NCBI GenBank assembly: GCA_051546255.1
Contig: CP128815.1
Coordinates: forward strand, 434,001-498,000
Source of the DNA: Meyerozyma guilliermondii
Lineage: Eukaryota
DNA: 64,000 bases
Reading direction: 5' to 3'
Shown here: positions 39,724 through 61,547 of the stretch, one piece after another
Position numbering within the stretch: the stretch's first letter is position 1
Layout of the letters: the number at the start of each line of letters is the position of its first letter
Notes under the pieces: model-generated
What the model was told of the DNA's origin: nothing
Database searches by the model: none
Seen by the model: only the letters and a program-made list of their open reading frames with translations
Translations under genes and position numbers: made by a program

Positions 39724-40392
39724 CTACATAATTGGTTGGAAGAACCAGTAAGTCAAGAATCTGGAGTTTTTCTTTGCATCTCTCTTTTCCACTTCATTAC
39801 CTCCCTCTCTTTTCATAATTGGTTGAAAGAACCAGTAGGTCAAAAATCTAGAGTTTTTCTTGGCTTCTCTCTTGACCATCTCGTCTCCAGCAACGATATC
39901 TTCTTCTCTCTTCATAATTGGCTGGAAGAACCAGTAGGTCAAAAATCTGGAATTTTTCTTAGCTTCTCTCTTCACTACTTCCGAGGTCTCTTCCTCTCCT
40001 CTCTTCATAATTGGTTGGAAAAACCAATAAGTCAAAAATCTCGAGTTCTTCTTGTCTTCTCTCTTCTCAAGGCTCGACTCAGGCACCAAGTTTTCAATGG
40101 GAAAGCTTTCCCGCTTCATATACTGAGCAGCATTGAATTCGTAGCCGGTTGCAACTTCACCAAGCTCACGTTTTTCTGGACTTTCCTCCTTAACGGTGGT
40201 GTTCACAAGGAAAAGGGTGATAGTTCCACTGTTGTTGAGGTAAATTGGAGCATTGGTTTCGTCAATAGTCACAATTTGGTTGACAGCACTCTTTGGGAAG
40301 GGAACTGGAATCTTATCAGATGCTGCAGCAAGAGGTGCGGCGGCAGCGTAGGTTGCAAATAAAGTAGAAACGAAGGCAGTTGAGAACTTCAT
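39724..40392 (-). CDS. MFalpha: Alpha-factor pheromone precursor with 4 copies of KKNSRFLTYWFFQPIM
   Basis: Signal peptide MKFSTAF...AAAAP, pro region, KR Kex2 sites with EA/DA spacers, four identical 16-aa peptides. Confidence 0.97.
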   Translation of the reverse strand: MKFSTAFVSTLFATYAAAAPLAAASDKIPVPFPKSAVNQIVTIDETNAPIYLNNSGTITLFLVNTTVKEESPEKRELGEVATGYEFNAAQYMKRESFPIENLVPESSLEKREDKKNSRFLTYWFFQPIMKRGEEETSEVVKREAKKNSRFLTYWFFQPIMKREEDIVAGDEMVKREAKKNSRFLTYWFFQPIMKREGGNEVEKRDAKKNSRFLTYWFFQPIM

Positions 40393-45171: not shown

Positions 45172-46392
45172 TTATAAATAACTTGAATCGAGTAATCGGT
45201 AGGTTGCGAACACTTCAGGCGACTTGGAAACAAATTCCCGAAGAAGTTCATCGACCATTTCCTTGCTTCTTGAAGTGAATCTTTTTGTCACTCTACCACC
45301 CACCGATTCTGTTGATTCATTGAATGTGTTGATTTTCACCGATAATTGCAGTATTCTAAGTCCCTTTATGACTCGATAAAGCTCAAGAAGGTCCACTTGC
45401 AGAAAACCCTTTACAATCGGGGTGGTAAGCGATGAAATCCTCACATATTCAACCGTACATCGATGGAGCAGAATGTACTGTCTTTCTCTGGGACACTTTA
45501 CCCACTTACACGATTCAATATGGTTAAACTCTTCGATCAAAAGCGGAACTGTTTCAATACCGACGCCAAGTATACATGGTCTACCATCGGGGTAATTTGG
45601 GGGATCTCGGGATGGACGGACTTTTCCATTGCTCAAAGGAAGGTGGATAACTCTAGAATGAACGTTTTGCGTATTATCGATAGTCGGGGAGATTTGCGTA
45701 TTGTCGATAATTGTGGAGATTCGCATATTGTCGATAGCTGGGGAGATTTGCGGATTTTCGATAGCTGGCCGGCTTTGGACATCATGGTCAATAGTTGGCG
45801 AGATTTGCGTATTTTTGATAGCTGGGGAGATTCGCGTATCATCGATAATTGTGGAAATCTGCATATTTTCGATAGCTGGCCGGCTTTGGGCACAATGATC
45901 AATAGTTGGCGAGATTTGCGTATTGTCGATAGCTGGGGAGAATTGCGGATTTTCGATAGTTGGGGAGCTTTGCGTATCACAGTCAATAGCTTGCGGGCTT
46001 TGGGTATTATGGTCAATAGCTGGTGGGGTATCATCATCAATAGCTTGTGGGCTTTGTGTACCAACTTCGATTGGCGAGTTTTGCGTACTATTTTTAATTG
46101 GCAAGATTTGCGTAGTTGGCAGGCTTTGCTTTTGATTCATCATAGATTTGATTGTTTCAACAAGTTCTCTATGATTTTCTTCTTGGACTCTCATAGTTTC
46201 TTCATGAATCCACATAGTTTCTTCATAGTACCTCTTAGTTTCTTCATGGATTCTCCTAGTTTCTTCTCGGTACTTCCTAATTTCTTCGCAAAAAGCATGA
46301 ATGCTTTTGCTCCTCTCTTCGTATTCCGCCTCAATCGTACCGTGTCTTCGACGTTTCCTTTTTTGAATTGTATCATTAATGTGATCCGTCAT
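45172..46392 (-). CDS. GCR1_C-domain putative DNA-binding protein, copy A: coiled coil, internal repeats, GCR1_C
   Basis: C-terminal GIETVPLLIEEF....KW....ERQY....R..VEYV.....VDLLELYR...L...QLS.KI resembles the Gcr1/Msn1/Hot1/Ndc10 C-terminal domain; paralog at 58909. Confidence 0.7.
   Translation of the reverse strand: MTDHINDTIQKRKRRRHGTIEAEYEERSKSIHAFCEEIRKYREETRRIHEETKRYYEETMWIHEETMRVQEENHRELVETIKSMMNQKQSLPTTQILPIKNSTQNSPIEVGTQSPQAIDDDTPPAIDHNTQSPQAIDCDTQSSPTIENPQFSPAIDNTQISPTIDHCAQSRPAIENMQISTIIDDTRISPAIKNTQISPTIDHDVQSRPAIENPQISPAIDNMRISTIIDNTQISPTIDNTQNVHSRVIHLPLSNGKVRPSRDPPNYPDGRPCILGVGIETVPLLIEEFNHIESCKWVKCPRERQYILLHRCTVEYVRISSLTTPIVKGFLQVDLLELYRVIKGLRILQLSVKINTFNESTESVGGRVTKRFTSRSKEMVDELLREFVSKSPEVFATYRLLDSSYL
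45670..46070 (-). repeat. Coding minisatellite of 27-30 bp units (ISPAIDNTQ-like)
   Basis: Recurrent gatagctggggagatttgcg / tcgataattgtgg units. Confidence 0.9.
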
Positions 46393-47077
46393 TTCCCTTA
46401 TCAAGAAATTAATTAATTTCGCGTTTTAATGGTTGCAAATTATTGATCCGAAATCCCAGCTTGCATGCATGACGAAAATGAAGTCTTGAGATATTCAACA
46501 AGGTCAATGGATATTTAGGGAATTCTTAAAAGGCCATTGAAGCCTTCGTAGGCAATAATTGCACATTTAGAATCGATACACTCTTAGGTATTTTAAGAGT
46601 TATTAGTTTTCCTTGAGTTAATAACTAGTTTTCGATTTCTATCCTGATCCGAGATCAGAAACGAACTATTGCCTTGTAATTTAACTGGCTGATACAGTAG
46701 TTGGTAATTGTATGATTGTTTCTTGTCATAAGTTGAGAGCCTAGCATCGCATTTCTTTGGTGAACACTCAATTTCTTATACAAATGTCCAATTTAAGGAA
46801 GATTGCACGAGTACAATGCATAGTTTATCCTCACAATAGCCCGAGACCTTCGCTAACTATCCCATTGTTCAATGAAATAAGCCTTCCGTAAGCATTTATT
46901 TTTAGCACTCGCGAAATAGGCCATCGTACTTCAACCACCACCAAATAATATTAGGCGTTATCACAACAGATAAAACACCATGTGGGTGACCTCGCGGCTA
47001 AATAGGGATTTCTGTAGCGTATATAAAACGGGAGTATTGCAGATTTATAGTAGTTTTAAGTTTTACTCAATTGCAAT

Positions 47078-47449
47078 ATGTGGCCCAATATAGTAGCGTT
47101 GGAAGTGGGTTGTGGGGCAACCCGCACAACTTACACCACTTTTGACTTGAATCTGACTTTAGATGCATACTACTGTGGGCAAAAACAGACTTTTTATTCC
47201 ATGAAAAAAAAGTTGAAGAATGCGAGACTTACAGACGCTGAGATAACTGAGACCGGGTTGGTCTTGAAGTGTGGGGAAGGGTTTCAAAATTTAACCACAT
47301 TCAACTACAATCTGACTTTGAATGCATCGTATTGTGGGGGACAAGAGGGTGAGTACTTGGCAAAGCGCCAGTCAAATGCGGGGAGTGGTAGAGATGTTAA
47401 ACTTGCTTGGATTTGTCTTGTAGTTGTTGCTGCTACTTTGGTTCTTTGA
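47078..47449 (+). CDS. Novel small Cys-loop surface-type protein, family 1 copy 1 (two loops plus hydrophobic C-terminal tail)
   Basis: TATATAAAA about 55 bp upstream; 2 x CG-x-TTF.(Y/L)NSTL.A.YCG; GPI-like tail. Confidence 0.75.
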   Translation: MWPNIVALEVGCGATRTTYTTFDLNLTLDAYYCGQKQTFYSMKKKLKNARLTDAEITETGLVLKCGEGFQNLTTFNYNLTLNASYCGGQEGEYLAKRQSNAGSGRDVKLAWICLVVVAATLVL

Positions 47450-48029
47450 GTCTACTGAACTAGCTAAAAATGATCAATTTCGCTTCATTATGCGTGAGTA
47501 GAACCTTGACATGAGTTTACGAGCTTAATTGCATTGCATTACATAAAATTTACGAGGTTGAAAATTAGTGCAAATAGCCCAAGAAAAGCTGGTTCAGAAC
47601 TGAAAATGAGAATGTAATAGAACGATGTATAGTAGTTTATCCTCATATAGTCCGCGTGCGTCGCTGACTATCAGTTGTGCAAATATTTTTTAGGCACTCG
47701 CGCCATTTTATTTTCAGTCGATAACTAAATTAGTGGAGATGATGAATGTGAGAGTCTGTAAAGAACTTAGATCTAGCTGCTTCAATAGGCATCTGACCCT
47801 ATGAGAAGAGTAAGGGCCAATAAGTCAATAAGACAAGATACCAAGAATGCTTCTAGGGTAATTGTAGGATACCTTTTGATTAAATATGAAGATTTTCATC
47901 AAATTTGACTTTGGAAATTCCGTAACTGTCACTCCAACAAATAATACCGGATCCTCGAATGTTAGAGAGGGCTTATAGCTCATATAAATAGGCACTATTT
48001 TCATTTTTGTTTAACTCAAGTTCATTTCC

Positions 48030-48218
48030 ATTGACACGAGATGTGGGGAAGAATGGACTCATACCTACAACACTTTTTAACTACAATCTGGCTTTATCAG
48101 CATAAAACTGTGGGAAAGCAAGAGAATATACGAGTCCATGCACCCCAAGTGTAGCACGGCGAGTCGCAGAGATGCTAAATTTGGCTGAATTTGTCTTATT
48201 ATTAAGATAGTCCTCTGA
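48030..48218 (+). pseudogene. Degenerate family 1 copy
   Basis: tgtggggaa...acttttt aactacaatctg...gca TAA aactgtggg...gatgctaaatttggctgaatttgtctt; contains a stop and a frameshift. Confidence 0.7.
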
Positions 48219-48467
48219 GCCTATGTTTCACTAGCCATCGACAAAAATCATCTGCTGAAACCAAAATCGTGATTCATGGCTAAATTAGTTGCGCACCATA
48301 CGGTTACGATATCAATTTGCAGCCAATTCGCACTCGCTTAAAGATGCCATTTATTTTACGTTGGTGCCGTGCGAGTTCACTAAATAATATCAAGTAGTGG
48401 CTTTTATCTCTTATATAAAATGGGCATTATCTAAATTTTTAGTAGTTTCACTCAATAATTTCACAAT

Positions 48468-48863
48468 ATGTCCAATTTCTGGCCCCAAATGATAGAGTTG
48501 CAAGTGGGTTGTGGGGCAACCCGCACAACGTACACCACTTTTGATTACAATCTGACTGTAGATGCATACTATTGTGCGCAAAAAGATACTTTTTATTCCC
48601 AGAAAGACAAGAAGAAACGCAAACTCCCTGCAGTTCTCTCAGGTGCTACGATAACTGAGGAGGGCGAGTTGTTCTTGCAGTGTGGAGAAAATTCGAACCA
48701 AACGTACACCACTTTTAACTACAATCTGACTTTAAATGCATCCTATTGTGGAGGTCAGCAAGGTGAGTACGTGGTAAGCCGCCAGTCAAGCTCGGCAAGT
48801 GGTAAAGATGCTAAATTTGCTTGGATTTGTGTTATACTTTTTGCTGTTTACTTGGTGGTTTGA
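48468..48863 (+). CDS. Family 1 copy 2 (two Cys loops plus hydrophobic tail)
   Basis: Clear paralog of 47078; TATATAAAA upstream. Confidence 0.75.
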   Translation: MSNFWPQMIELQVGCGATRTTYTTFDYNLTVDAYYCAQKDTFYSQKDKKKRKLPAVLSGATITEEGELFLQCGENSNQTYTTFNYNLTLNASYCGGQQGEYVVSRQSSSASGKDAKFAWICVILFAVYLVV

Positions 48864-49412
48864 GAGTGAATTTTCTTAGCCGAAAATGATCATTTGTGAT
48901 TTGACATTAACATTGAATTCGCAATGGACTCTTCCACATCATGCGTGATAACATTGCTTTACGTGTTTAAGAAAATGAAAGGATTACTAGCATTTCCAAA
49001 GTTGAAAGCCCAAAGAAAAGTTTTCGAGATTGTAATTTCTGATTAGAACAATGCATAATAATTTTCACGTAGTCAGTGAGCTTCGCTGAATATGCAATTA
49101 TTTCTCCGGCACTCGATATCTATATTTAGTGCCGTTGTTAAGGTGGAGAGTCTGCACCAGAGCCTAATCTTTGCTTAGATAAGGTATCAGACCTTGAAAG
49201 AAGCAGTTAAGGCTAATACGTTTCCTTAGGACAAGGATGCCAAGACAAGAGTTAATGCCTCTAGGCTTATTGTGAGATATCCTCTAACTAGATATGGAAA
49301 TAAAACCACATTATCCCAACTGTCACTCCGACCTACTATTAATTTAGGATCATGATAGAGGGCTTAAATCTCATATAAAATAGGCATTACTTTGAATTTT
49401 CTCAAGTGTAAT

Positions 49413-49642
49413 ATGACCCCGTGTCAATCAGCGGTACCTGAGAACGGGCTGCACTTGGATTGTGGCGCACAGAACCTAACGATATACACTTTTGACTACA
49501 ATTGGACTATGGGTGCATAATATTGTGGGTTATACAGGGTGAGTACGAGGCAAAGCACCGCAAGTCAAACGGGGCGAGTCTTAGAGATACTAAATTGTCT
49601 TGGATTTGTCTTGTAATTCTAGCTGTTAACTTTGTCCTTTAA
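49413..49642 (+). pseudogene. Family 1 single-loop copy, disrupted
   Basis: Homologous to 51694; Tyr codon replaced by TAA in the AYYCG motif, followed by a 1-nt frameshift. Confidence 0.8.
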
Positions 49643-50166
49643 GTTACGTACTGATCTACAATCGATATCATCTACTATAAGCTTGCGAATTTGCAGCCAA
49701 TTTCCTCGCGTAAAGATGCCATTTTCGCGATACTAAAATTGGTGCCGTGCTGAGTGGATACAGTACCAATAATATCCGCTATCTTGCCTAAGAGGGCCAA
49801 AGCTCCACCGTCTGATAAGCCCATATAGTCAGATGTGGTTTTGAGGGATATCTTGAAACATCCACATTAATATGAAACTCCACATTAATCTAACATTAGT
49901 TAAGCAGTTGCTCGGTTCTGATCCAGGTACCCCTATTTCAACAGAGCTCTCTACAATTTTTATTCTAATTGAGAGGAAGAGATACTGTTCCACGTGAATA
50001 TCTACGTATGTAGTCGAATTGTTTTACGAAAGTATACGATAAGTTTATACAGTACGGGCATATGGTCTGCAGGATGGCGCATATTTCTTGCGTCAAAAAA
50101 GATTACTTAAACACGCCATTTGGAGAAGTTCGCACGACGAAAATTGATTCCATTTAATAGTCAGTA

Positions 50167-50915
50167 ATGCCCTATTATGCAATTATCAACGGTAGAGTGA
50201 CAGGAGTCTTACTGAACTGGCAAGATTGCAAAAATTCCGTCTTGGGATACAGCAATTCATGGTTCAGAAAGTTCGAAACAGAGGATGAAGCATGGGATTT
50301 TTTATGGAAAATCAGTCAGATTCATATTCGGATTCAGATTCATAAGAAAGTTACCTGTTAGGCTATGACGGAAGTGATTATTCCGTCACAAAGTCTGACG
50401 ACGAAGATGACGAAATCGAACATATCTACATTGATGGAGCTTGTAGAGGAAACGGAATGTATGATCGTCCTGAATCTGGATATGGTGTCTTTTATGGAGA
50501 TGGAGATGAGCGGAATGTTGCTGTTGCCTTATCAAGTGTTGATGATATACCAGGAACGAGCCAAAGAGCAGAATTGCACGCATTGGACCATGCTGTCTCC
50601 AATATTGCCGATTTCTTAGATGAATATAATCCAGATAAGGAGTATGTCATCCATACCGACTCGCAATACGTCATCAAGGCTACTACGGTCTGGATCAAGA
50701 AATGGAAGTCCAATGGCTGGACTACATCTTATGGGAAATCTGTGGCTAATCAAGACCTCATAAAAAGAATATTTTCGAACTTGAACCGTATCAATAAGGA
50801 ACTTGAAGACAACGGCTTTTCTGCGGTAAAGCTTGAACACGTTGCTGGCCATTCCGGAGACTACGGAAATGAAATGGCAGATCAATTGGCCAACGAGGGA
50901 GCTGACATGGATTAA
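50167..50915 (+). pseudogene. RNase H1 gene (one hybrid-binding domain plus RNase H domain), disrupted
   Basis: YYAI.NGR.TGV..NW.DCK..V.GY....FRKF.T..EA..F; IYIDGACRGNG, TSQRAEL, IHTDSQY, HVAGHSG..GNE.AD.LA; frame break near 50300 and TAA at 50343-50345. Confidence 0.85.
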
Positions 50916-51693
50916 TCAGTACTGAAATCTCTCGCAAACGGATTGCCCTACACTTTTGTGGATTGAGTTGTTCGCGGTTATGAAATTTTTCGTAAGTCTC
51001 TTTAAACTTTAATTCCGAAAGAGGAAGACTTATTGCTCAGATGTCTCAGCTCCAGTAGCTAACTTGGTCAAGTAAATATAGCTCCTTTTGTTTCGCTTAA
51101 AACAGCATTATGCCTTAACAGGCGTATCACTTATGTAGTGTTATTGAAGGGTGACTTTGAACGGAAAATATATTAGGGTTTGTATTGATCAGCCACATGC
51201 TCGTAAATGCATGCAAATGCAAATGCGAGTAACTGTACATCAATGCACCACGGAACCACGAAGGGTATCAATGTCAATTTGGGTGCAAAATGTGCCAAAT
51301 GTTTAAATTCAAAATGATAAAGAACTCAAATTAAAGTCAATTTCCACGATTGTGTACTTTGACCAAACATATATTGAAGACTCCATAACATTGACGAGCT
51401 TCAATAACATGGATCACTGTATTTCGTAGCAATTTCAACCTAAGAAAATTTCAAAAATTGTAACTGAGATTATAACGCAAACAATGAATAGTAGTTTATT
51501 CTCATACTAGTCCGTGAGCTTCACTTTTTTAATTGTGACAGTATTTTTTAGGGCATTTTATTTCCGCGATAATAAATTGGAGCCATGCTGAGTGGGCTCA
51601 GTACAAATAATATTAGTCGTTATCTTGTCTAGGGGCTTATTGCTAGTATCAAGGGCCGATGTTTTGATTATAGTATTTTGACTCAATTGTAAT

Positions 51694-51921
51694 ATGTCCC
51701 TGTGGCAACCAGAGGTACCGGGAGAGTTGCACTTGGATTGCGGGTGGGAGAACTTGACGGTATACAATTATGACTACAATTGGACTATGGGTGCATACTA
51801 TTGTGGGATATATAGGGGTGAGTATGAGAGAGATCACCGCAAGTCAGACGCGGCGAGCCTTAGAAGTGTAAAATTTGGTTGGATTTGTCTTGTAATTCTT
51901 GCTGTTACTGTAGTGCTTTGA
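51694..51921 (+). CDS. Family 1 copy 3 (single Cys loop plus hydrophobic tail)
   Basis: LDCGWENLTVYNYDYNWTMGAYYCG...GEY...KFGWICLVILAVTVVL. Confidence 0.65.
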   Translation: MSLWQPEVPGELHLDCGWENLTVYNYDYNWTMGAYYCGIYRGEYERDHRKSDAASLRSVKFGWICLVILAVTVVL

Positions 51922-51924
51922 GTC

Positions 51925-53220
51925 TACGAGCTACGATGTGAAATGCAAGACATGTTCTTTTACCGTATCCTGGACGTTTTGGATCAAAAGATAACTTGAT
52001 ATGGTAGTATAGAAGTCATATATAAATTTAGGACAGTATTTAACGGTAAGTCTCTTATAAATGTTTACTTATTGACCTTTAATAGGAGTTCATTTTAAGC
52101 AAACAGCGAAAGAAATTCTGACTTTTGGCAACTAATTTACTTTACAATTGATGAGGCGGTTCATTTTGGTCTTGCATGATCGGGATAATACAAACGGAGG
52201 CCCAGTAATGTGCCTCAACTCTAACTTCTCGAGTCTGTCGAAAATAGTGCGAGCTTTGACAAGTACGTGAGAAGAGAAAGAATAAGAAACAGTATAAGGA
52301 AGATCGAGAGAATGAAGGGAAAGTATAAGAGATGAAGTAGAAAGGGTAGCAGAATCAGTAGGCTGAACCTTTAGAGGCTTCCACTTTCTTTCGGTTTAGC
52401 TGTATATATTTACTTAGAAACTGAGTTTCGCAGCCACCTCTAATTTGGACAAAGATTTGACTGAACAAACTATGGCGACTCTGGGTTGCCTGAATAAAGA
52501 AAGCTTTCTTAGAAAAATTCAAAAAAAAAAACGACTCCAGAAGGAATGGCCTGAGGAGGAATGCCCTGATGTCGAAACGAGTATAATACCGTATTTAATC
52601 TTTTTTGGTATGTCGATGGGTTTGATCAGTATTTTAAGAGGGGTACATGAGCTAAGGGTTTCCCGTGAGCCATTAAAACTTATCCTCAGGTTCCTTCGTG
52701 TTGCTACGTGCGTTGTTGCGTGCGTTGTGACATGTTGCATCACTTTCAATTACTTCAGCCCATCATGGAAGATAACTATATCTGGAATTATCGATGTATT
52801 ACTCCACCAAGACTATGCAACTTTTGTTTTAGTTTGGGTATTAATTTTGATATTAACCCTATCAGCTCCACCCCGGAAGATCACAGAGGGAAAGGATGAA
52901 ATAAAAAACGAAAAGGATGAAATCAAAAACGAAAAGGATGCAATCAAAAAGGAATATGTTGAGGTATAATTACTTTGTGTTTAGAATGACTAGAAATGGT
53001 GGATCACCGTTCATGTTTTCTCGTTTTCGTCTTTAGTAATGTATGTTTGACCCACGTACTGTTTATCAGAAAGAAGAGATAGAGCAGAGAGTTTAAGGAA
53101 AATTGAGAGAATGAAGTAATCGGAAAGTATAAGGAAATTGAGAATAGATAGCAGAATCAGTTATCTCAGCGTCATTTTCAGGTTCTTTGACCTTCGGAAG
53201 CTTCCACTTTCTTTCGCGGC
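51925..53220. repeat. Segmental duplication; partner at ~56166-57895 carries a solo LTR
   Basis: Collinear shared sequence from acgagctacgatgt to ttccactttctttcgc. Confidence 0.9.
52472..52969 (+). CDS. Novel small multi-TM protein, family 2 copy 1
   Basis: About 3 hydrophobic segments, L.VSREPLKLILRF motif, KDEIKNE repeats; first ATG at 52472. Confidence 0.7.
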   Translation: MATLGCLNKESFLRKIQKKKRLQKEWPEEECPDVETSIIPYLIFFGMSMGLISILRGVHELRVSREPLKLILRFLRVATCVVACVVTCCITFNYFSPSWKITISGIIDVLLHQDYATFVLVWVLILILTLSAPPRKITEGKDEIKNEKDEIKNEKDAIKKEYVEV

Positions 53221-53294: not shown

Positions 53295-53612
53295 ATGCTT
53301 GAAGTTGTGAGGGCAATCTTGACTGAAGAAGCTATGGAAGACGACATGCTGAAGTTGAAGACAGTGCACTTTTATACTATTATATTGTTTTGTTTTAGCT
53401 GGGTAGCACTTCTGGCTGATGAAATGATTGGAGGATATGCCTGGTTGTGTTGTGTGGCGATTCATGTGATCTGTACTGCTACATGGTTAAACATTGTAAA
53501 AGCTTCCCCTCGATATGAGGATCCATGGTGTATGATATATAGCTTATCTTGTCTTATTTGGTGGCTTCTGTCATGTTATGGGGTTTACGATATCTACTGC
53601 CAAGCAGAGTAA
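53295..53612 (+). CDS. Small 3-TM protein, possibly a distant member of family 2
   Basis: Hydrophobic 105-aa ORF behind the same purine-rich promoter block as 52472 and 57124. Confidence 0.55.
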   Translation: MLEVVRAILTEEAMEDDMLKLKTVHFYTIILFCFSWVALLADEMIGGYAWLCCVAIHVICTATWLNIVKASPRYEDPWCMIYSLSCLIWWLLSCYGVYDIYCQAE

Positions 53613-57123: not shown

Positions 57124-57600
57124 ATGGCGACTCCGGGTTGCCTGAAGAAAGAAAAAGCTCGTGAAAAATGGCTAAAAAAACAGAAAGGATCCCCTGATGA
57201 AAAAATAAGAGCGAATAAACACAATTCTTATTTCTGGTCCGGTTGTGCATTGTTTGTGATATGTGTAAGAGGGGTGCGTGCCCTATGGGTTTCCCGTGAG
57301 CCATTAAAACTTATCCTCAGGTTTATTCGTGTTGTTGTGTGCGTTGTTGCGTGCGTTGTGATATGTTGCACCGCTTTCAATTACTTCAGCCCATCATGGA
57401 AGATAACTCTATCTGGAATTATCGATGTATTACTCCACCTAGAATATTCAACTCGTGCTGATATTTTTCAATTTATTAGTATATCAATCCTATTAACTCC
57501 ACCCCCGAAGAGCACAGAGGAAAAGGATGAAATCAAAAACGAAAAGAATGAAATCAAAAACGAAAAGGATGCAATCAAAAAGGAATATGCTGAGGTATAA
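57124..57600 (+). CDS. Family 2 copy, close paralog of 52472
   Basis: Shares VSREPLKLILRF, FNYFSPSWKIT.SGIIDVLLH and KDEIKNE-type repeats. Confidence 0.7.
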   Translation: MATPGCLKKEKAREKWLKKQKGSPDEKIRANKHNSYFWSGCALFVICVRGVRALWVSREPLKLILRFIRVVVCVVACVVICCTAFNYFSPSWKITLSGIIDVLLHLEYSTRADIFQFISISILLTPPPKSTEEKDEIKNEKNEIKNEKDAIKKEYAEV

Positions 57601-58908: not shown

Positions 58909-59817
58909 TTACTCCAAATTCTCAATTCTAGAGCGTTTACTTTCTCTCAAACTCAATTCCAATCCGTACCTGGACGATATGGTAATAAAGTCCCGAAGAA
59001 GATCATCAACCTTTTCCTTGCTTGTGAGATTGAAATTTCTTCTCTTTCTACCACCAGCAGTTTCCGTTTCGTCACTGAATGATTTGATCTTGGTCGACAA
59101 TTGAGTCATTGTAAGTCCCTGTTTGTCTCTATAAAGTTCAAGTAGGTCCACTTGTCCAAACTCCTTTGCAAGAGGTTCACTCTTAGAAAGCCTGAGATAT
59201 TCAACGGTGGGCCGTCGGCGCATGAGGTATTGTCTCTCTTTGGCAGACTTTGCCCACTTACATGAGTCAATAAGGTTAAACTCTTCGATCAAAAGTGGAA
59301 CTGTTTTTATGCCTTTACCAAGTATACGTGGTCTGCCATTGAAATTTGGGGGACTTTGTGGTAAGCAAGCTCTTCCATTGCTCGAACCACGAGGAGGGTG
59401 TATCACTCTAGGATGCTCAATTTGCGTATCGATAGTTGGGGAGCTTGTTTCATGGTCAATAGCTGAGGAGCTTTGGGTATTGTCGATAGCTGGGGAGATT
59501 TGAATGTTATGGTCTATAGCTGGTGGGCTTTGAGTACTAACTTCAATTGGGGAGATTTGCGTACTGTCTTCAATTGGCGTTTGCGTAGTTTGCAGGCTTT
59601 GCTTCAGTCGCCATTGATTTATAAAGTCACTCATCATATGTTCGAGTTTCGTAAGTTTGTCCATTAGAGCCGTTAATTTCTCGTCCATAGCATTAATTTT
59701 CTCGTTCATATCACCAATTCGTTCGCAAGTCGCATCAATGCTTCTGTTCAACTTTTCGAATTCCGCCTCATACATATCGTCTCTTCGCAGTTTCCTTTCT
59801 TGCGACAAATCTCTCAT
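58909..59817 (-). CDS. GCR1_C-domain putative DNA-binding protein, copy B
   Basis: GIKTVPLLIEEF...KWAKSAKERQYLMRRR..VEYL...VDLLELYRDKQGLTMTQLS; N-terminal coiled coil; paralog of 45172. Confidence 0.72.
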   Translation of the reverse strand: MRDLSQERKLRRDDMYEAEFEKLNRSIDATCERIGDMNEKINAMDEKLTALMDKLTKLEHMMSDFINQWRLKQSLQTTQTPIEDSTQISPIEVSTQSPPAIDHNIQISPAIDNTQSSSAIDHETSSPTIDTQIEHPRVIHPPRGSSNGRACLPQSPPNFNGRPRILGKGIKTVPLLIEEFNLIDSCKWAKSAKERQYLMRRRPTVEYLRLSKSEPLAKEFGQVDLLELYRDKQGLTMTQLSTKIKSFSDETETAGGRKRRNFNLTSKEKVDDLLRDFITISSRYGLELSLRESKRSRIENLE

Positions 59818-60875: not shown

Positions 60876-61547
60876 ATGAAGCTCAATTATGCAAAACCAT
60901 TATTGTTCTTAATTTTCAGTTGGTTTGTACTTGCGATTGACACACAGATTTACTTGAAAAGAGCCAATGATTCATGTCAATTGATTCCAGTTTTATACAA
61001 AGGTCGATTTTTACAGTACAATTGCCCTGGAGAGACACATTATATGCTTGCTGATGAAGAATTTATTGCATTAAGTAACATCACCAAAAATGTTCCCGAA
61101 CGGTTAACATTACTGAACGGAACGATTTTCAACTACAAGAAACAGCACTCGAATCGAAATTACACTCACCAACTAATTCGTTTCATTGACTATGCAACCG
61201 CTCACATTAAGCAAGTGAGTCTCAATATTGCAAATTACTTTCAGCTTCGAACAAAACCGTGTCAGATAAACCAAAAAATGGCCACCAGTAAGGATGGCAG
61301 CAAATATTTGCATATTCTGGTTGAAGCTACCAAAACCTGTGATAAGCTGGCACAAATTTCCGCAATTCTAGAATCCATGGAAGAGTGGTTAAAAAATCAC
61401 GAACATTATTGCGGTATATGGTGTACTCGTGAATCCGATAAAGGGACTTGGGCAGGGTTGATTCTGATTGGACTGAATAAAGCTTTTTCGTTGGAGTCGT
61501 GTGGTAATTATGGGACATATGGACAATGTGAAGAAACTAACGGTTGA
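60876..61547 (+). CDS. Secreted Cys-containing protein, CSS2/KHR1 killer-toxin-like C-terminus
   Basis: Signal peptide, KR site, N-glycosylation sequons; TCDKSAQISAI...YCGIWC.R.SDKGTWAG.I.IG...CG pattern (CUG=Ser). Confidence 0.65.
   Translation: MKLNYAKPLLFLIFSWFVLAIDTQIYLKRANDSCQLIPVLYKGRFLQYNCPGETHYMLADEEFIALSNITKNVPERLTLLNGTIFNYKKQHSNRNYTHQLIRFIDYATAHIKQVSLNIANYFQLRTKPCQINQKMATSKDGSKYLHILVEATKTCDKLAQISAILESMEEWLKNHEHYCGIWCTRESDKGTWAGLILIGLNKAFSLESCGNYGTYGQCEETNG

Follow-up and report, generated by a model that had tools for sequence, protein, structure and literature searches.

A run of very small proteins that end like membrane-anchored proteins and begin without a signal peptide raises the question of whether they are made, and of where in the cell they would go. 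Such proteins are encoded in a stretch of 64,000 nucleotides of the yeast Meyerozyma guilliermondii (GenBank assembly GCA_051546255.1, contig CP128815.1, positions 434,001 to 498,000 of the forward strand; hereafter the window, in whose own numbering all positions are given). At 47078-51921 of the window, short open reading frames (ORFs) built of cysteine-bounded modules follow one another. The locus is best read, from its sequence, as a lineage-restricted, fast-evolving tandem array of microprotein genes. Tentatively, and at somewhat less than even confidence, we favour the more specific reading that the family consists of lineage-restricted, fast-evolving, tail-anchored membrane microproteins.

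To begin with the copies themselves, the three intact ORFs were searched against the whole window by tblastn under genetic code 12. Five copies follow one another in head-to-tail order on the + strand, three of them intact (123, 131 and 75 amino acids, aa) and two of them broken:

47078..47449, + strand: c1, intact, two modules, 123 aa; modules at 47111-47176 and 47270-47335; hydrophobic tail at 47402-47446
about 48024..48229, + strand: ps1, badly decayed one-module copy; start region lost, at least two frameshifts, several stops, tail shortened
48468..48863, + strand: c2, intact, two modules, 131 aa; modules at 48510-48575 and 48681-48749; tail at 48816-48860
49413..49644, + strand: ps2, one-module copy with a nonsense codon and a deletion of one nucleotide (nt); module at 49461-49526
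51694..51921, + strand: c3, intact, one module, 75 aa; module at 51739-51804; tail at 51874-51918

The match between c1 and c2 has E=2.7e-50 (63% identity over 128 aa) and that between c1 and c3 has E=2.5e-14. With c3, ps2 was found in two pieces in two frames (E=3.6e-21) and ps1 was found at E=9.9e-5. No sixth copy was detected in the window, the best tblastn match outside 47075-51918 having E=1.0. When the module motif was written as a strict regular expression, six matches were obtained in the six-frame translation, all on the + strand inside the array, and none in 30 shuffled windows. The match at 49461-49526, in ps2, has a stop at an x position, and a seventh, degenerate module is present in ps1. 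Relative to c3, the lesions of ps2 are TAC>TAA at 49518-49520 and the 1-nt deletion in a G run near 49537. Each unit is arranged in the order of Cys-bounded module(s), GEY, a small-residue patch and a 15-residue hydrophobic C-terminus; the GEY motif follows the last module only, and the two cysteines of a module are 21-22 residues apart. The original prediction had described a modular family with three intact and two broken copies, and both the tblastn search and the motif scan bear this out; the architecture of module, GEY, small-residue patch and hydrophobic tail is present as it was described.

We then ask whether each unit is a gene in its own right. The ATG, with A at -3, stands at the homologous position in c1, c2, c3 and ps2, the N-termini are homologous across the copies (MSNFWPQ... 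and MSSWQPE...), and in-frame stops close the frame just upstream of the ATG. A TATA box upstream of the ATG, originally noticed in the first two copies, was found there 58 and 56 nt away. TATA-like boxes occur in four of the five units, and none was found for c3:

47020..47026, + strand: TATA box of c1, TATATAA, 58 nt before the ATG
47983..47989, + strand: TATA-like box of ps1, TATAAAT
48412..48418, + strand: TATA box of c2, TATATAA, 56 nt before the ATG
49374..49380, + strand: TATA box of ps2, TATAAAA, 39 nt before the ATG

The stretch from -60 to -1 aligns between c1 and c2 with z=7.0. No conserved donor, branch point, acceptor or hydrophobic ORF was seen when the upstream sequences were read by eye, and the 240-nt spacer before c2 contains no conserved hydrophobic ORF. 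The module border was also read by eye, no splice-site program being used, and showed no conserved donor, branch point or acceptor. Among database proteins, the apparently longer members P0008, P0010 and P0020 (165, 239 aa) were rejected as read-through artefacts: they run past the true stop and through the stops 5' of the ATG, with TGA called as Trp. A word-based search of proteins of 231-2000 aa yielded 314 candidates, none of which scored. Since the ATG and, in four of the five copies, a TATA box are duplicated with each unit, stops lie upstream, and the searches returned no longer relative, the ORFs are regarded as stand-alone genes. Had the copies been C-terminal fragments of a longer gene, a longer relative would have been expected; profile and length searches gave none, and the upstream frames are closed by stops. 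The family is genuine and is not part of a longer gene.

All relatives are 62-131 aa long and 66-95% identical, and are alleles of the same five loci in other strains; the family is shown here to be restricted, as far as these proteins indicate, to one species. In other assemblies, every one of the five loci is represented by an intact allele: P0004 (a c2 allele, on 30 contigs), P0014 (33 contigs), P0032 (a c3 allele, on 27 contigs), P0031 (a counterpart of ps2, on 19 contigs) and P0027 (a counterpart of ps1, 71 aa, on 1 contig). Further intact counterparts of ps2 are P0024, P0025 and P0030. Because ps1 and ps2 have intact counterparts elsewhere, their breakage is strain-specific, and the term 'pseudogenes' used for them in the original prediction holds for this strain but not for the loci in general. 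In the 13 aligned members, the Cys pair of the last module, Y-N-x-T and the I-C of the tail are invariant (13/13); within GEY, G and Y are kept in 13/13 and E in 12/13. The NCBI entry for c1, P0013, is identical to its code-12 translation, with CTG as Ser, and one source names P0032 'hypothetical protein'. At least two of the ORFs are already in public records, unnamed or as 'hypothetical', and the family as such is unrecognised.

Database searches agreed with the original prediction, in which no family had been recognised. In Pfam, c1 and c3 match no family and c2 matches only DUF535, at E=0.1, its 12.3 bits falling short of the cut-off of 27. When 12 members were compared with Pfam, one matched PLDc_N at E=0.033 and none matched significantly. 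NCBIfam gave no significant match, and the best scores in the ESM Atlas (0.82 and 0.83) were below lead level. A profile search of 1.84 billion representative proteins of all lengths found four family members, together with two weak matches to animal immunoglobulin (Ig) repeats (E=6.5e-5 for the sum of 6 repeats and E=6.5e-4 for that of 8). Homology to Ig domains was rejected, as BLASTP leaves a 17-aa motif only, at E=0.014. The profile search of the PDB gave antibody heavy-chain variable (VH) chains only, with E=0.11-2.1. In JGI metagenome contigs, 107 pattern matches were obtained, of which tblastn confirmed none. No such family is described in the literature consulted on glycosylphosphatidylinositol (GPI) anchoring, tail anchors and Candida gene families, although the family is not searchable by name.

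How could the array have arisen? Within the array, repeat spacings of 778, 636 and 779 nt occur, along with two longer repeats whose period is about 1.4 kb. Because of these spacings and this period, c1-ps1 and c2-ps2 are taken as duplicates of a two-gene unit. The array would consist of five single-exon units, in each of which a promoter with a TATA box would be followed by a short ORF, opened by an ATG in favourable context, and by a spacer. Duplication of the two-gene pair, together with the fifth copy, would have built the array, and later changes may have come about by birth-and-death and gene conversion. P0005 is chimeric, with a c2-type front and a c1-type tail, and this chimera is therefore a sign of gene conversion.

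Do the frames carry a mark of selection on a protein? The ORFs of c1 and c2 are 78% identical and differ by four indels (3, 3, 9 and 9 nt), all of them in-frame, whereas the spacers that follow are 63% identical with 19 indels, 4 of which are multiples of three. The excess of in-frame indels in the ORF over the spacer has P=0.008 (hypergeometric, calculated by hand). The ratio of nonsynonymous to synonymous divergence (dN/dS) was obtained by the Nei-Gojobori method. For c1 against c2 it is 0.54 (Fisher p=0.03), and for the last module, a region picked after seeing the data, it is 0.215 (p=0.006). When 82 random substitutions were placed on c1, the frame remained open in 3-6% of 20,000 simulations. 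Few codons change their amino acid, and the simulations give P<=0.008 for this. A codon-usage score is best in frame 1 of the + frames for all three ORFs (0.10, 0.13 and -0.06, against 0.18-0.35 in six conserved genes); we give it little weight, as much of it only reflects the absence of stops and, for c3, one of the antisense frames reaches an equal score. Tests of constraint are confounded by gene conversion, because synonymous divergence (dS) ranges from 0.15 to 0.88 along the gene, with 0.15 in module 1 and 0.88 in module 2.

Taken as a whole, the comparison suggests that coding constraint is present but weak. In our reading, the frame and the last module with the anchor would be under selection, and the remainder would be nearly free. 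Purifying selection, on which the original prediction had made its case depend, leaves a weak signal on the frame and the last module; in module 1 and the tail, dN/dS is about 1. We consider it fairly probable that the intact copies are functional protein genes.

The destination of such proteins would be set by their two ends. In the first 30 residues, the longest run free of D, E, K, R, H, N and Q is 6, 6 and 4 aa in the three proteins, compared with 23 aa in a pheromone precursor and 14 aa in a DUF6736 protein, two secreted proteins of the window. The N-terminal maximum of Kyte-Doolittle hydropathy, KD(11), is 1.62, 0.93 and 0.07. No signal peptide was found in any copy or allele, and the comparison of uncharged runs confirms the original observation on this point. 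At the other end, the final 15 residues average 2.8 on the Kyte-Doolittle scale and the chain ends there. The hydropathy maximum is confined to the last 11-15 residues, and a K or R is placed 2-5 residues before the hydrophobic end. With no hydrophobic segment at the N-terminus, this agrees with a tail-anchored protein, whose one transmembrane segment lies within about 30 residues of the C-terminus. The small-residue patch (SNAGSG, SSSASG and SDAAS) is found 21-25 residues before the C-terminal end. A pattern for fungal GPI C-termini matches 3/3 of the proteins and also 6 of the 146 other window ORFs of at least 60 aa. By hydropathy and by this permissive pattern, the C-terminus does have the shape of a GPI-attachment signal, as had been proposed.

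AlphaFold models made with two alignments have mean pLDDT (predicted local distance difference test) values of 40.4 and 54.6 and are confident for the C-terminal helix only, which covers residues 112-130 of c2 (131 aa) and, with pLDDT of about 82, residues 57-74 of c3 (75 aa). The strictly hydrophobic run comprises about 15 residues, and the predicted helix comprises 18-19 residues with polar flanks. The modules are Cys-bounded and, in our reading, beta-prone.

A tail-anchor fate is suggested because the proteins have no signal sequence, a hydrophobic C-terminus and basic residues N-terminal to the hydrophobic stretch. According to PMC9520029, tail-anchored proteins are inserted by the guided entry of tail-anchored proteins (GET) route without translocation. 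Under the favoured reading, the finished chain would be captured post-translationally by a tail-anchor (GET/Get3-type) route and put into the endoplasmic reticulum (ER) membrane. This would leave the modules on the cytosolic side, with the invariant juxtamembrane W-I-C placed at the bilayer's cytosolic edge as a candidate for S-acylation. The sequons (N-x-S/T) and the omega-like small-residue patch would remain unused, being either structural, as N-x-T can also form a turn, or left over from an ancestor that was secreted. That the genes are expressed, and that tail-anchor insertion, cytosolic orientation and acylation take place, we infer from the sequence.

Several observations weigh against this reading, and they concern both the protein and its gene. 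The 15-residue hydrophobic stretch is short for a tail anchor. The AlphaFold modules have pLDDT of 28-53, with no confident fold, and a protein language model gives recognition values of 1658 and 1752, where 91 of 100 proteins of known families reach 2300. The proteins contain 4, 4 and 2 sequons, compared with means of 1.27, 1.31 and 0.31 in composition shuffles (P of about 0.02 per protein, the copies not being independent). Two sequon positions are kept while x varies (N-S-T/N-W-T and N-L-T/N-Q-T), and the Cys pairs and the small-residue patch fit a lumenal domain. On the side of the gene, the TATA box is only 56-58 nt before the ATG, and the 5' untranslated region would therefore be very short. 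Besides the values of about 1 in module 1 and the tail, dN/dS is 0.60 and 0.69 for c3 against c1 and c2. The differences between c1 and c2 by codon position are 26/22/34, with no third-position excess (p=0.26), and those of the c3 pairs are 24/20/24 and 33/27/25. The low number of amino-acid changes is partly explained by the uneven divergence that gene conversion has left. A non-coding element of the array, element X, which is located further below, is conserved about as well as the ORF, and the region upstream of ps1 and ps2 is 78% identical over 349 aligned columns, a value obtained with a different aligner.

Some of these points are met by a possible, if rather doubtful, alternative: the copies may be decaying relics, 5'-truncated descendants of a gene for a secreted, N-glycosylated GPI protein whose signal-peptide part was lost. 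The frames would be open since the copies are young and undergo gene conversion, and the protein would be absent or irrelevant. Such descent would explain lumenal-type features in proteins without a signal peptide. It fits the two of five copies that are broken in this strain and the alleles that are truncated or altered elsewhere, namely P0026 (62 aa), P0033 (a 4-aa deletion in the tail) and P0011 (a different start). It also fits the loss of the module-1 Cys and of sequons in some alleles. The first Cys of module 1 is changed to Ser in P0014 and is also lost in P0007 and P0017, and sequons are lost from module 1 in P0016 and P0017 and from the first position of module 2 in P0021. Module 1 and the tail with dN/dS of about 1, the missing third-position excess and the chimeric P0005, with its sign of gene conversion, are likewise as expected of decay. 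The RNase H1 copy next to the array is a pseudogene as well, and the surroundings as a whole, at 40-61 kb, form a low-GC island made up of lineage-specific paralogues.

However, several observations speak against decay. All four c1-c2 indels are in-frame, against 4/19 in the adjacent spacer; the ORF is open despite 82 differences, an outcome of 3-6% of the substitution-only simulations; and the dN/dS of the last module is 0.2. The one-module and two-module types, which are separated by dS of 0.6-0.7, have both retained the start codon with its context, and for every one of the five loci there is an assembly with an intact copy. Furthermore, no parent gene with a signal peptide was obtained in the searches.

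An unlikely alternative is that the products are surface or lumenal GPI glycoproteins, with the modules forming disulfide-closed, N-glycosylated hairpins and with an ER entry signal that has escaped recognition: an unannotated 5' exon, an atypical N-terminus or the C-terminal signal alone. The sequon excess, the sequons whose x changes without loss of the site (N-S-T, under code 12, with N-W-T, and N-L-T with N-Q-T) and the last-module Cys pair, invariant in 13/13, would be natural in such proteins. The small patch, about six polar residues and 15 hydrophobic residues match the fungal GPI pattern in 3/3. There is a weak likeness to the disulfide-bonded strand motifs of Ig domains, seen in the PDB VH matches at E=0.11-2.1 and in the Ig-repeat matches. 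In addition, Get3/TRC40 binds GPI-attachment tails and helps to target some GPI proteins, as PMC9520029 reports.

On the other hand, no copy has a signal peptide, in-frame stops lie 5' of the ATG with the TATA box directly 5' of it, no splice signals were seen by eye, and the 240-nt spacer holds no conserved hydrophobic ORF. The GPI pattern is permissive, matching 6/146 other ORFs, and the Ig-like similarity is non-significant. Natural alleles dispense with the module-1 Cys and with sequons. According to PMC9520029, GET and SND lack any activity for translocating their clients, for which an N-terminal signal and Sec61/62/63 are needed. Thus, the lumenal or surface exposure of the original prediction is only suggested: the sequon excess is modest, alleles lose the module-1 Cys and sequons, and there is no signal peptide. 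The particular form in which GPI-anchored, glycosylated, disulfide-bonded microproteins would enter the ER by the C-terminal segment alone, with a hitherto undescribed step to translocate the 60-115-residue N-terminal part, is very improbable.

Finally, it is hardly credible that the ORFs are an annotation artefact, in which upstream exons have been overlooked and the copies represent only the C-terminal part of a longer gene that still exists. The one point in its favour is general, namely that a GPI-like C-terminus is usually found on a longer secreted protein. Against it, each unit has its own ATG and four of the five a TATA box, the 240-600 nt spacers hold broken copies and not exons, and no module-sharing protein longer than 131 aa was found except for the read-through artefacts.

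Returning to tail-anchored microproteins as the favoured reading, we compared the family with known systems. Tail-anchored clients of GET/Get3 (TRC40), such as the SNAREs and Sec61-beta/Sbh1, are likewise small, have no signal peptide and end in one hydrophobic segment with basic residues N-terminal to it. However, the family has no sequence relation to known tail-anchored families, its hydrophobic stretch has only 15 residues, and its sequon-rich Cys modules look extracellular. The small GPI proteins of fungi (such as those predicted in Candida and Saccharomyces) resemble it in the omega-like patch, polar spacer and hydrophobic end, and also in having several sequons, tandem duplication and fast evolution; they differ in that the family has no signal peptide and no homology to GPI families.

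CYSTM proteins (a Pfam family) are also microproteins without a signal peptide and with a Cys-containing C-terminal membrane segment. However, the tail of the present family has one Cys where CYSTM proteins have a cluster, and the N-terminal parts do not resemble each other. No CYSTM match was found even at E<=10, and no Pfam family, CYSTM or other, was matched at gathering score. The module starts with L-x-L-x-C-G and ends with A-x-Y-Y-C-G, recalling the Ig V-set strands B (L-x-L-x-C) and F (D-x-A-x-Y-Y-C), whereas its Cys spacing is about 20 residues compared with about 70 in the V-set and no Ig family of Pfam is matched. We treat the resemblance to Ig strands as chance or convergence. In its working, the family would be most like a small tail-anchored protein and, in its C-terminus, most like a small fungal GPI protein; it is homologous to neither.

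Element X, a conserved non-coding element of about 55 nt, recurs in the array:

46808..46865, + strand: element X upstream of c1
47618..47678, + strand: element X between c1 and ps1
49044..49098, + strand: element X between c2 and ps2
51478..51535, + strand: element X upstream of c3

Its consensus lies around AGAACAATGCATAGTAGTTTATCCTCA..TAGTCCGTGAGCTTCGCTGACTAT, and in these four units its conservation is close to that of the ORFs. Element X has no Rfam match and no predicted RNA structure (4 predicted pairs, -1.55 kcal/mol). A structured RNA, in the array or in element X, was rejected, the sole match to a microRNA model being below threshold with E=0.99. Element X may be regulatory. At 46765-46794 (+), a weak 30-nt match to the start region of c2 (CACTCAAT...ATGTCCAATTT), with 73% identity, was noticed as a possible remnant of a sixth unit. 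It abuts element X directly, as though the body of the ORF had been deleted.

The genetic code was examined with the coatomer-beta gene of the window. Its 12 CTG codons, when aligned by eye with a solved homologue, correspond to L,D,K,D,T,D,V,L,P,A,T,G. Nine of the 12 positions are small or polar in the homologue, and Ser fits better than Leu. For the family, CTG decoding is of little consequence, because N-L-T and N-S-T are both sequons.

The array lies inside a lower-GC island of the window. The first 40 kb (1-40 kb) contains conserved yeast nuclear genes at a GC content of 43-53%, including those for mitochondrial RNA polymerase, coatomer beta, a kinase and a SUR7 protein. In the island, which extends over 40-61 kb, the GC content is 38-41%, ORFs are sparse, and several pairs of lineage-specific paralogues are found. 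An insert of about 1.7 kb that contains a broken RNase H1 gene separates ps2 from c3, and part of the promoter is duplicated on either side of the insert (49736-49775 and 51574-51613). The RNase H1 paralogue itself occupies 50167-50915 (+). It has an N-terminal hybrid-binding domain (PF01693, E=4.6e-15) and an RNase H domain (PF00075, E=8.4e-24) in separate frames and an in-frame TAA within the acidic linker.

Other genes in and beside the island were also inspected. At 39724-40392 (-), a gene has the appearance of an alpha-factor-type mating pheromone precursor, with a signal peptide (MKFSTAFVSTLFATYAAAAP...), a sequon-bearing pro-region and four identical 16-residue peptides ending in ...FLTYWFFQPIM, each preceded by KR and acidic spacers. 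The longer ORF has no MF_alpha match in Pfam at E<=0.001, and the alpha-factor-type identity therefore rests on the architecture. No match to the 16-residue peptide was obtained in a full-text literature search.

Two pairs of paralogues without a Pfam family are present. The genes at 45172-46392 (-) and 58909-59817 (-) have a charged, heptad-like N-part, tandem 9-residue repeats (SPAIDNTQI-type, with a 27-nt period in the DNA) and a conserved C-terminal domain (…LLIEEFN.I.SCKW…QVDLLELYR…). Those at 52472-52969 (+) and 57124-57600 (+) encode small multi-pass membrane proteins that contain a segment rich in Cys (VVACVVTCC) and end in KDEIKNEK repeats. The ORFs at 53295, 54223 and 55535 may encode more membrane proteins of the island. 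At its right edge, the gene at 60876-61547 (+) encodes a secreted protein that is rich in Cys, has a clear signal peptide and matches DUF6736 (E=6.2e-8).

What would the locus mean for the yeast? The family is, as it appears, an orphan of a kind that is known in general: lineage-restricted, tandemly duplicated, C-terminally anchored microproteins. For annotation, the ORFs stand alone, the longer database forms are artefactual, and no function can be transferred from known families. Within 5 kb, the locus illustrates the turnover of taxonomically restricted microproteins by tandem duplication, gene conversion, strain-specific pseudogenes and the loss of 'defining' residues. If the copies are not expressed, they are ordinary decaying DNA in a lineage-specific island. 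If they are expressed, they provide a natural test of how the cell handles a GPI-like C-terminus without a signal peptide; and if the products were GPI-anchored or glycosylated without one, this would be a new mode of ER entry for small yeast proteins.

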